From NCBI RefSeq assembly GCF_006345805.1, contig NC_042998.1, positions 112,654,001 to 112,718,000 of the forward strand: DNA of 64,000 nucleotides. The letters are read 5' to 3'. A model generated the notes under the pieces. It had not been told where the DNA came from and did not search any database. It saw nothing but the letters and a program-made list of their open reading frames with translations. This document shows positions 2,111-44,243 of this stretch, piece by piece. The stretch's first letter is position 1; each line of letters begins with the position of its first letter. The stretch comes from Octopus sinensis (taxonomy: Eukaryota). Made by a program: the position numbers and the translations under genes.

Positions 2111-3025
2111 GTGGTCAACTGTCTCATTCTGTTGGTTGCACATTCTGCATTTGCTGTTGGAAACTGTTTTCATTATTTTGCTTTTATAGTTCTTAGTGGT
2201 CAGGCATTGGTCTTGTGCAACGAGAATCAGTCCTTCCGTTTTTGTATTTAGTTTTGGGGCCACTGTTAGCTATGACTTAGGTTCACTTCTCTGTCAAGCC
2301 TTACAGAGTATTAGTCATGGAGTGACTTTTCCCTCCATTTCTCCTTTAGAATGTTTTGTAATTCTGTTTTCATGTTGTTGTTTTGTCTTTGTTTTTTTGG
2401 GTTTTTTTTGTTTTTTTGTCTCTTTGATCATTTCTGCAGTGTTGTCATCTGAGATTAATGTTTCCGTGTAGCCTGCTTCTATTTTGTAATTTTTCGCTTC
2501 CTGGTCTATAAAGAAAGGTGTTTTCATTTTTTTTTATCGTTTTGCTTTATTTCATGTAACAATCATTCACTTTTGTTTCTTAGTATTTTTCTAGTTCACC
2601 CGTTACTTTATAGTAGTTCTCTATCTGTCACGCCTCGACCTCCTTTTGAGTGGGGTAGATATATTCTGTCTCTGTCTGCTTTAAGGCAATGACTTCGGTG
2701 TGTTGTTAATAGTTTCCTGGTTTTTCTAAGTTTCTCAGTTCTCTAATCTTCCAGTTAATTCTGATAAAGCTGTAATTTATTACTGGTTTGGTTAACGTAT
2801 TTATCCCTATTATCTTATTTTTAGCATTGAGTTCAGCATATAATATTAGTTTAACTCTTCTGTAATATTCTCTCTTAATTTTCTCTTCCATTTCGGTGTG
2901 TTTTATTTTAGCTGTTTCGTCTATTCCTATTTCTAATTGTATGGGCAATTATAGTCTAATTCTCTGATTTCTGTGTCTATGTCGAATGCAATGCTTTCAG
3001 CACTGATTAATTTGCTTCTTCCTAA
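2110..3025 (-). mobile_element. Decayed R4/Dong-like RLE non-LTR retrotransposon fragment
   Basis: KIKREYYRRVKLILYAELNAKNKIIGINTL and TEGLILVAQDQCL...CRMCNQQNETVDHI are homologous to the 55-58 kb elements. Frameshifted, and ends in (GATA)n. Confidence 0.85.
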
Positions 3026-3044
3026 TGTCACTTTGGCACATTTG

Positions 3045-3830
3045 TCCAACCCATGCTCATCTCGATGTCCTTGCTGAAACAAAGTGTTGTTTTCTGCAAG
3101 TGTTCCACCCTTATTGCAGCCCCTATTTGTTCCACGTACTTCTCGAAATTTTTACTCACTGTTCCCAGGGTTCCGACTGTTGTTAGTACTACTGCTACCT
3201 TTTTCATCGACCACAACTACTTAACTTCCCAAGCTAACCTGCCATATCTCTCGACTTTTCTTTCGTCCTTATCGCATGCCTTGTTGTCAGCTGGGCATGC
3301 TATATCTATGATCCAGCATAGTACGTTTTCTTTCTCAATTAAGACTATATCCGGCTTCCTATTCTCTATCTCATGGTCGCACTGAATCATAAAACCCCAT
3401 AGGATCTTTGCATTTCTATTTTCGACGATGCCTTCAGGTTTGTGGTCGCATCAATTTTTTACTCTGTCAAGTCTATACTTGTTGCAGAGAGTACAATGGA
3501 CAAGCCTGGCGTCTCATATTCCTTCTGGGCAAGTGGCATACATTCGCTGGTAATATGCGATACTATTTCACCGTTTTATCCACAGATTCTGCTCTTATCG
3601 CTTCCTGCTGCGTTGTCTATTCTGTATTTTATGTAGTTTGTTCTTAGTGCTTGCTCTTGAACAGCACAGATTAGAGCCTCCGTTTCCGGTTTTAAATCAC
3701 TTTTAGCCATCCACAGCCATCTTTTTTCTCTGTCTGTCTTACCTTCAACATCCCTATCAAATTGACCATGTATTCTTTTCTTTACCCACCTATTTTCAGT
3801 TTCATTCGTTTTCAATTGCTTGTACAGTGC
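3045..3830 (-). mobile_element. Second R4/Dong-like LINE 3' fragment (different subfamily)
   Basis: IHGQF...WLWMAKSDLKPETEALICAVQEQALRTNYIK...RICG, followed by the RLE region and C-terminal VGTLGTVSKNFEKYVEQIG. Confidence 0.85.
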
Positions 3831-14559: not shown

Positions 14560-14960
14560 CACTTCTTATTTCCTTATTGCCCACAAGGGGCTAAACATAG
14601 AGGAGACAAACAAGGACAGACAAACGGATTAAGTCGATTACATCGACCCCAGTGCGTAACTGGTACTTAATTTATCGACCCCGAAAGGATGAAAGGCAAC
14701 GTCGACCTCGGTGGAATTTGAACTAAGAACGTAGCGGCAGACGAAATACCTATTTCTTTACTACCCACAATGGGCTAAACACAGAGAGGACAAACAAGGA
14801 CAGACAAACGGATTAAGTCGATTATATCGACCCCAGTGTGTAACTGGTACTTATTTAATCGACTCCGAAAGGATGAAAGGCAAAGTCAACCTCGGCGGAA
14901 TTTGAACTCAGAACGTAGCCCGGCGTGCCAACAATTCTGCCAGCTGGTCGCCTTAAACTT
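14560..14960 (-). mobile_element. SINE family A, tandem composite (core and tail duplicated)
   Basis: Two consecutive units of CCCACAA.GGGCTAAAC...GATTAAGTCGATTA...AAAGGATGAAAGGCAA...GAATTTGAAC. Confidence 0.8.
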
Positions 14961-19436: not shown

Positions 19437-19486
19437 AGCTTCTACAGGACTAGAACTGTTTCATCAAGAGAAATCTTCAGGAAGCT
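19437..19486 (-). ncRNA. Type I hammerhead ribozyme motif (monomeric form)
   Basis: AGCTTC-CTGAAGA-TTTCTCTTGAT-GAAA-CAG-TTCTAGTC-CTG-TA-GAAGCT. Perfect 6-bp stem I, intact core, paired stem III and a GUA triplet; stem II is weak. Confidence 0.7.
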
Positions 19487-42785: not shown

Positions 42786-43152
42786 TATATCGTCTGTCAG
42801 GATGTTTTGTTGTCCCCTTTTTGTATCAATTAACTGTCTGGATGTTTTGCGTTCTTGTCTCATTTTTTTTTTCAAAATATAGCAGCGTACGTACACTTTG
42901 GTCTCTTATATATAAGTATATATATATATATAAATATATATGAATTTTGTACGTCTCTATTATTCTTTCTATTCTTTCATTCTTTCATTCTTTCTATCAG
43001 CCCATTCACATTTCGTTCATTCCACTCTTCGTTCCCATTCTCTCACATTTCCTGGCCTTCGCTTCATGTTCACTTCTCCTCCTTTTTCACTTCACTCTGT
43101 CCCTTTCATTTTTTCTCGTCCATCCCTAATTCTTCTATCCTTCTGCCTCTAC

Positions 43153-43200
<48 letters not shown>

Positions 43201-43914
43201 CTCCCCACGTGACCGGTGTTCGGCCAAGCCTGGCCTTTCTTTCTTGGTTCGACTGCCATCCGTGCAACATCTATATTCCTCCCTGTACCTGTCAAATCTT
43301 ATGTCCCTGCCGTAAGGCTTTACTTCCACACACGCCAACTTAATTTAATTCGTCCTTAGTCGAAAGATATTCGTTGTTAATGTCCTGTTATTTGTATTTG
43401 TGTACCATTTCTCCGTTTCTTTCCGTCCATATTTTCGTATACATTCACTGCTTTCTTCCAAGGAGTCTGGTGGTCTTAGCTTATTTTTCCCTTGGGGCTG
43501 GCCAGATTGGAGCAATCTCGAGTATAACCAGATGAAATTGCAAAGATAATCTGGAACTCGACTGAGGAAAGAAAACTCCGAATGACCCGTCCTTGTTTTC
43601 TTTCTATTGTCTGTCTGAATGTTTTGTTATCGTCTTTTTGTATCACCTAACTGTCTGGATGTCTTACGTTCTTGTCCCATTTTTGTATTATATATATATA
43701 TATAAAGTATGGTGGGGTTTAGTTCACAGGTGATTTAAACAATTAAGTACGCGGCGTAAGTGCTGTAACGGATTACTAGTGCTCCAAGGTTATAGCCGAG
43801 ACGGTAGTTATGTAGCCATTGAAGATTTTCGATATACCGGATATATAATTGTTAAAGAGGAAAAAAACGTTAAGGCAAAGCAAACATCTCTAGTCATATA
43901 CATTTTCCCTATTT

Positions 43915-43970
43915 GTCTCTGATAATAGAATATTCCATACTATGAGATATCCCGGAAACAGCTGTAAGAC
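43915..43970 (+). ncRNA. Type I hammerhead-like motif at the apex of a long hairpin (43843-44050)
   Basis: GTCT-CTGATAA-TAGAATATTCC...GATATCCCG-GAAA-CAGCT-GTA-AGAC. Stem I is GTCT/AGAC, stem III is the palindrome ACAGCTGT, and the core carries a G8A change. Confidence 0.65.
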
Positions 43971-44047
43971 TCAATTTCACCCCATAATAATAATGTATAT
44001 GACTTGAGATGTTTGCCTTTAAAGTTAGTTGTCCTCTTTAACAACTA

Positions 44048-44243
<196 letters not shown>

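Follow-up and report, generated by a model that had tools for sequence, protein, structure and literature searches.

Hammerhead viroids and other rod-like circular RNAs combine a hammerhead motif with a long stem. Retrozymes are defined by head-to-tail units with at least two type I hammerheads (PMC7229834; bioRxiv 10.64898/2026.07.22.740005). In Penelope-like elements (PLEs), an inverted pLTR with an optional tail is the canonical insertion pattern (PMC3846280; PMC8557442, Fig. 2; PMC11167929). The Hydra clade of PLEs is defined by an RWK motif, DKT in place of DKG, a CxCX5C linker, a nuclease with CxxC and CxH around the E and N residues and without the CCHH cysteines between GIY and YIG, (TA)n targets and a canonical hammerhead (Craig et al. 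2021, PMC8557442). According to the supplement of that study, Hydra hammerheads share a layout in which a base at the foot of stem II is unpaired, and an inverted copy is attached in one family.

The window analysed here spans 64,000 nucleotides of the Octopus sinensis genome (contig NC_042998.1, positions 112,654,001 to 112,718,000, forward strand), and all positions below refer to it unless a reference copy is named. A 347-bp element within the window had been taken, in a sequence-only reading, for a rod-like RNA with a hammerhead at its tip, resembling retrozymes or viroid-like circular RNAs. We conclude with high confidence that it is a 5'-truncated Hydra-clade Penelope-like copy, in which a minus-strand 3' end bearing the tail lies head-to-head with an inverted, tail-less 3' end, and that its hairpin likely stems from insertion and not from selection on an RNA.

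On the minus strand, the main copy is reduced to the last ~63 nt of its pLTR (43842..43904; reference positions 2981-3045 of the long copy L091), which form the left arm of the hairpin, and to the PLE 'tail' of ~138 nt (43704..43841), which comes after the short pLTR end and extends as far as the ORF start in longer copies. The inverted copy (43901..44051, plus strand; reference 2889-3044) is likewise 5'-truncated and carries the hammerhead (43915..43970) and the right arm (43990..44051), which, by pairing and end mapping, is its 3' end and stops at the short end. The two copies meet head-to-head with an overlap of 4 nt, a microhomology at 43901..43904. The tail end abuts (TA)n at 43687..43703, the likely target microsatellite, which is common to the 3' end of a neighbouring repeat, and the short end abuts a (GATA)n microsatellite (44049..44243), confirming the earlier placement of a ~350-bp element between these tracts. 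No target-site duplication was discernible within the flanking microsatellites. Compared with the family majority, the main copy differs at 14 of 189 nt and the inverted copy at 14 of 150 nt, a decay of ~8-10% for the insertion. The copy was likely dead on arrival.

The neighbouring repeat (42900-43690, plus strand) is another high-copy repeat, represented by its 3' end, which runs out in the same (TA)n tract. It returned 5204 first-look candidates, with top matches ~89% identical, and gave no tblastn match to a sister PLE ORF (described below) in 14 loci. Elsewhere in the window, positions 14567-14919 hold two tandem copies of a 184-nt repeat, which we take to resemble a common SINE that also occurs inside several loci of the family.

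Both stems first noted in the element were reproduced on recounting from the sequence, 43843-43861 pairing with 44032-44050 at 18 of 19 positions and 43880-43902 with 43994-44016 at 22 of 23. They are segments of a single ~63-nt inverted repeat (43842-43904 versus ~43990-44051) broken by small indels, giving an imperfect duplex of ~63 bp with 6 mismatches over 59 aligned positions. The 22 pairs in the 23-mer stem exceeded the best values from 200 dinucleotide shuffles of 43842-44051 (13-18), and the fold (z = -5.4) was matched in stability by 0/100 shuffles. The proposed ~200-nt rod with a hammerhead at its tip held for its stems and its motif, but the hairpin covers only ~210 of the 347 nt, its loop measures 87 nt and the hammerhead is absent from the predicted MFE structure. 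For the hairpin of this copy, the strand opposite to the hammerhead folds more stably (-73.0 vs -64.2). Folded as a circle, the element was only 63% paired, a difference from viroid-like rods. A double-stranded transcript, as had been suggested, would be possible if transcription crosses the element.

Selection on the RNA duplex was assessed over 4310 positions in 39 arm pairs at 37 loci, many of which had been ranked by likeness to this copy. The arms mismatched each other at 12.4% of positions, and G-U-compatible mismatches showed no strand bias across the 39 pairs (168 vs 155, p = 0.50). Divergence from the family majority was 7.5% in the arm, 7.8% in the tail and 9.0% in the hammerhead, such that no extra conservation of the arms over the unpaired tail was seen. 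The same change occurred in both arms at 105 positions (2.4%, versus a rough 0.4% expected for independent decay); three loci accounted for 47 of these and this copy for none. Such double changes resemble compensation, but shared template variants or gene conversion could suffice without selection. The hairpin stem is a DNA-level inverted duplication with a variable centre, and likely not a selected RNA structure.

The hammerhead enclosed by the arms has a type I layout at 43915-43970, in agreement with the Hydra-clade hammerheads tabulated in the PMC8557442 supplement. Stem I is formed by 43915-18 and 43967-70, the core lies at 43919-25 and the GAAA at 43955-58, stem III is 2 bp long with a palindromic AGCU loop, and the cleavage site follows 43966. 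The motif has nonetheless decayed, carrying G8->A at 43924 and six further changes in stem II and its loop. Rfam returned no family of any kind in the window at gathering score, and at E<=10 no hammerhead but only weak miRNA-like hairpin matches. In the PAc hammerhead, mutation of G8 abolished cleavage, while insertion in vitro did not need cleavage (PMC11167929); hence this copy is predicted to be inactive. We regard the motif as the normal pLTR ribozyme carried in the inverted copy, with G8 lost after insertion.

Across the family, 55 segments span the hammerhead core. The 11 scored core bases are all retained in 23 of them, G8 has been lost in 6 and U4C is present in 19. The 3' 16-mer of the hammerhead has 5506 exact matches in the genome, mostly in sister families (~3/30 sampled matches belong to this family). 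This 3' half is common to many sister repeat families, and of 30 sampled loci (L131-L160), 13 had a U4C core, 6 a canonical core and 2 a CA variant, and 9 were unscored. The U4C change is reported to reduce hammerhead activity in vitro (PMC3088659), and its frequency suggests that some source elements carried it. In an alignment of 12 hand-picked hammerheads from several families, 88% of cells were paired and no double-sided change was found, the 3' half being invariant by sample selection. The fold thus rests on core conservation, complementarity and the variable length of stem II, and not on covariation.

A ~20-bp DNA palindrome (reference 2924-2946, window ~43940-43960) is formed in the family majority by the GAAA and the 3' side of stem II, and several fold-back copies (L004, L009, L019, L107) are centred on it. 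A junction hotspot at this palindrome was considered and rejected, being frequent only in matches ranked by likeness to this copy. A motif scan also found a hammerhead-like match at 19480 on the minus strand of the window, with a 6-bp stem I and a weak stem II; a near-identical match occurs in locus L099, and both may belong to another repeat family.

We then turned to the family in the whole genome (2.7 Gb, microsatellite-rich). The 347-nt query returned 2507 first-look candidates, 40 of which were scored and gave 93 matches, and a 20-mer from the tail had 137 exact matches versus 0 for a control. As a rough estimate, the copy number of the family is probably between one and a few thousand. 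In many copies, the match covers bases 1-201 of the query and then 198-347 on the opposite strand, and the segment between the arms is therefore not fixed in orientation. Once oriented, copies begin with a constant block of 138 nt, after which comes a palindrome of varying length and centre (~160 to >750 nt), the two head-to-head copies being 5'-truncated to varying extents. The 3' ends of 132 distinct family segments from 89 loci were bimodal, with 40 in reference 3030-3049 and 67 in reference 3170-3189, ~135 nt apart, which is the signature published for PLE tails (PMC8557442; PMC3846280; PMC11167929). An alternating microsatellite followed 53/69 tail ends and 28/39 short ends, compared with 544/5000 random window positions (11%).

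To look beyond matches ranked by likeness, we used a structure-blind sample consisting of the first 30 exact matches to the tail 20-mer, in which the tail is required and one of which is this copy. An inverted copy lay within 1.5 kb in 12 of the 29 other tail-bearing loci and was absent in 17. Of these 12 loci, 3 resembled the present one in having a whole hammerhead in the inverted copy alone, 1 had it in the main copy alone, 3 had it in both copies and 5 in neither. The idea of a rod with a hammerhead conserved across copies fails on these figures, given the 17/29 loci without an inverted copy and the 5/12 without a whole hammerhead. What survives of the sequence-only reading is a unit-like high-copy repeat with a hammerhead-derived motif akin to that of retrozymes; a circular RNA with a selected rod is not supported.

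Walking upstream of the hammerhead in longer copies revealed first a 3' UTR, then a nuclease, next an Asn/Thr-rich linker and finally a reverse transcriptase (RT). Two loci (L097 and L091) are colinear over the whole stretch, in which RT, linker, nuclease, 3' UTR, hammerhead, arm and tail follow one another. L091 also has, upstream, an inverted, 5'-truncated and tail-less copy of its own 3' end. In L180 and L191, a direct hammerhead-arm-tail repeat stands just before the ORF start, with the tail running straight into the N-terminus of the ORF, and the ORF of L180 continues to the nuclease. All family ORFs seen were broken. As in EN+ PLEs, RT and, C-terminally, a GIY-YIG-type nuclease share a single ORF (broken copies L097, L091 and L180), the pLTR occurs both as a direct (L180, L191) and as an inverted repeat (L091 and 12/29 sampled loci), a type I hammerhead lies within it, and there is an optional tail with two 3' ends.

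The identity of the two enzymes was pursued through several searches. With a 960-aa ORF that is uninterrupted in a sister family, the RT fragment shares 44% identity; among the Atlas neighbours of this ORF, some members carry GIY-YIG and RVT_1. On the family fragments and the sister ORF, Pfam matches to RT or GIY-YIG did not reach significance, and 4/22 homologues had sub-threshold GIY-YIG matches. Sequence searches against solved structures returned nothing informative. For the nuclease, a word-indexed protein search returned nothing at E<=0.001, and a profile search found 5577 relatives at E<=0.001. In an alignment of 69 sequences, the linker cysteines, Y-x-G, R, H, E and N were conserved. 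The AlphaFold model of the nuclease reached a pLDDT of 89, and its top Foldseek match was the GIY-YIG nuclease T4 EndoII (prob 0.97, E 0.05, above E 0.001); an earlier model from a 10-row alignment (pLDDT 53) had left the fold search uninformative.

Related elements were seen in other loci. The sister family has its 960-aa RT and nuclease ORF uninterrupted at L092:3249-6128 (plus strand) and in L099 (C26 ~1.19 Mb and C4 ~78.52 Mb, respectively). It is young, with copies ~98% identical and both direct and inverted pLTRs, and its inverted copy is ~180 nt shorter, corresponding to a long tail. Its 3' region contains the GAAA and palindromic stem III half of a hammerhead; the canonical 5' core was not found in a motif scan. 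At another family copy (L056), fragments of a further GIY-YIG-like retroelement lie upstream in the opposite orientation (L056:4300-6100, minus strand) and a related family has left an RT fragment just downstream, an arrangement common to L057 and L058 within a larger duplication.

By the motifs within its ORF fragments, the parent family fits the Hydra clade of EN+ PLEs. RW(K) and DKT motifs are present in L180 and L191, the latter reading RMRWK and SDKTG, and DKT also occurs in L184 and L176. The nuclease of L094 has CxCX5C, a YIG-like motif, the R, H, E and N residues, CxxC before E and CxH after N, and is without the cysteine pair inside GIY-YIG, which is the Hydra pattern. The alternating microsatellite beyond most family 3' ends agrees with the (TA)n insertion preference of this clade. 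Assignment to the Neptune clade was dropped, as neither CCHH with two cysteines between GIY and YIG nor the CX2-5CxxC linker was found.

Three other explanations of the element were weighed against a truncated PLE insertion. We give almost no credence to a non-LTR retrozyme, i.e. a short hammerhead repeat whose RNA was self-cleaved, circularised and reinserted by PLE enzymes. The element fits the description of this class in its type I hammerhead, its size of ~350 bp and its low GC (PMC7229834), and animal retrozymes are reported to be derivatives of PLE pLTRs (bioRxiv 10.64898/2026.07.22.740005). However, among 84 loci of ~3 kb with family segments, 50 of them with a whole hammerhead, all 11 within-locus pairs were on opposite strands and 0/11 on the same strand, which largely refutes the retrozyme explanation. 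Nor did the window contain a tandem repeat of this unit. The ends of the unit differ from the cleavage site, and the sequence runs on into the PLE ORF, contrary to a retrozyme without a protein-coding body. With its single decayed hammerhead, the element thus does not bear out the suggested retrozyme or viroid-like circular RNA. The sequencing-run search listed no RNA run with the element. In ~6% of three standard RNA-seq runs, whose species match is by label, family-level reads (85% likeness) ran in both directions and came mostly from other copies, with only 11, 3 and 5 reads at 99%+ to this locus over 801 bp. In these libraries, poorly suited to small circles, neither starts nor ends piled up at 43966/43967, and none of the 15 joints listed ran from 44050 to 43704.

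It is very improbable that the element is a non-autonomous, fold-back mini-element derived from a PLE end and amplified as a fixed unit in the manner of a SINE or MITE, even though 14 top matches span the whole 347 nt at 76-80%, the hammerhead copies of L003, L006 and L022 start near reference 2889-2891 and the stem II palindrome holds the centre of several copies. Those full-length matches were ranked by likeness to this copy and their junctions differ (28 listed), whereas in the structure-blind sample only 3/29 other loci had the same layout, with different breakpoints, and the centre fell on the palindrome in 1/12. Slightly less remote, and still improbable, is PLE debris whose duplex the host co-opted as a dsRNA element, a substrate of ADAR or Dicer. 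The ~63-bp imperfect duplex and the family-like reads in the RNA runs would suit such a role, but there was neither strand-biased G-U retention nor added conservation, and most of the RNA reads came from other copies. Counts of A>G and T>C places in the RNA runs were alike (26-31 vs 25-31), editing not being readable from them without matched DNA.

The truncated PLE insertion that we favour may have formed as follows. The GIY-YIG-type nuclease would nick a (TA)n tract, and reverse transcription would start from two priming sites inside the element RNA, one being the short end and the other the tail end, each beside a TATA-like patch. Both copies would abort early, after ~200 and ~150 nt, and be joined head-to-head via the 4-nt microhomology. 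Such two-site priming fits the behaviour of PAc, which initiates at two adjacent internal sites and extends both target strands (PMC11167929). As an alternative, self-priming on an antisense template has been put forward in print (PMC3846280). A bolder proposal, which we regard as rather unlikely, is that Hydra-clade PLEs here prime by pairing of the nicked (TA)n with two internal UAUA patches separated by 135-190 nt, leaving unusually long tails, and that they seeded many hundreds of fold-back duplexes feeding the host RNA-editing or small-RNA machinery. If true, the 960-aa sister element would make the (TA)n/UAUA priming reading testable in vitro. Independently of this, the uninterrupted ORF of the sister family could be used to test PLE inverted ends and (TA)n targeting. 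More generally, where an animal genome shows a hammerhead within a long hairpin, this is a signature of truncated Penelope-like insertions and is not to be taken for a viroid-like RNA.

A literature search for this family or for an octopus PLE hammerhead found no description. The hammerhead sequence of the family is unlike every Hydra entry in the available portion of the PMC8557442 table, including Hydra-1_Obim, the sole octopus family listed there. Penelope-13_HM and Hydra-1_Obim exemplify Hydra-clade EN+ PLEs with a C-terminal nuclease (PMC8557442), next to which the octopus family has a longer Asn/Thr-rich linker. Its tail of ~138 nt also contrasts with the 30-40 bp published for PLEs, and a Hydra-clade family with a long tail is apparently absent from that portion of the 2021 table. 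Unlike the Hydra-clade PLEs described in the available text of PMC8557442, the 347-bp copy is without an ORF. With metazoan non-LTR retrozymes, as presented in the accessible parts of PMC7229834 and bioRxiv 10.64898/2026.07.22.740005, it has in common the type I hammerhead, PLE ancestry and size, but it is without tandem units. Unlike hammerhead viroids, it is a dispersed chromosomal repeat, continuous with a retrotransposon ORF, with a stem duplicated at the DNA level. An N-rich insert between RT and nuclease is common to this family and published PLEs, and the copy shares with canonical PLE insertions, as they are documented in the sources cited above, a head-to-head inverted and 5'-truncated copy, a tail on one copy and a palindrome or microhomology at the junction.
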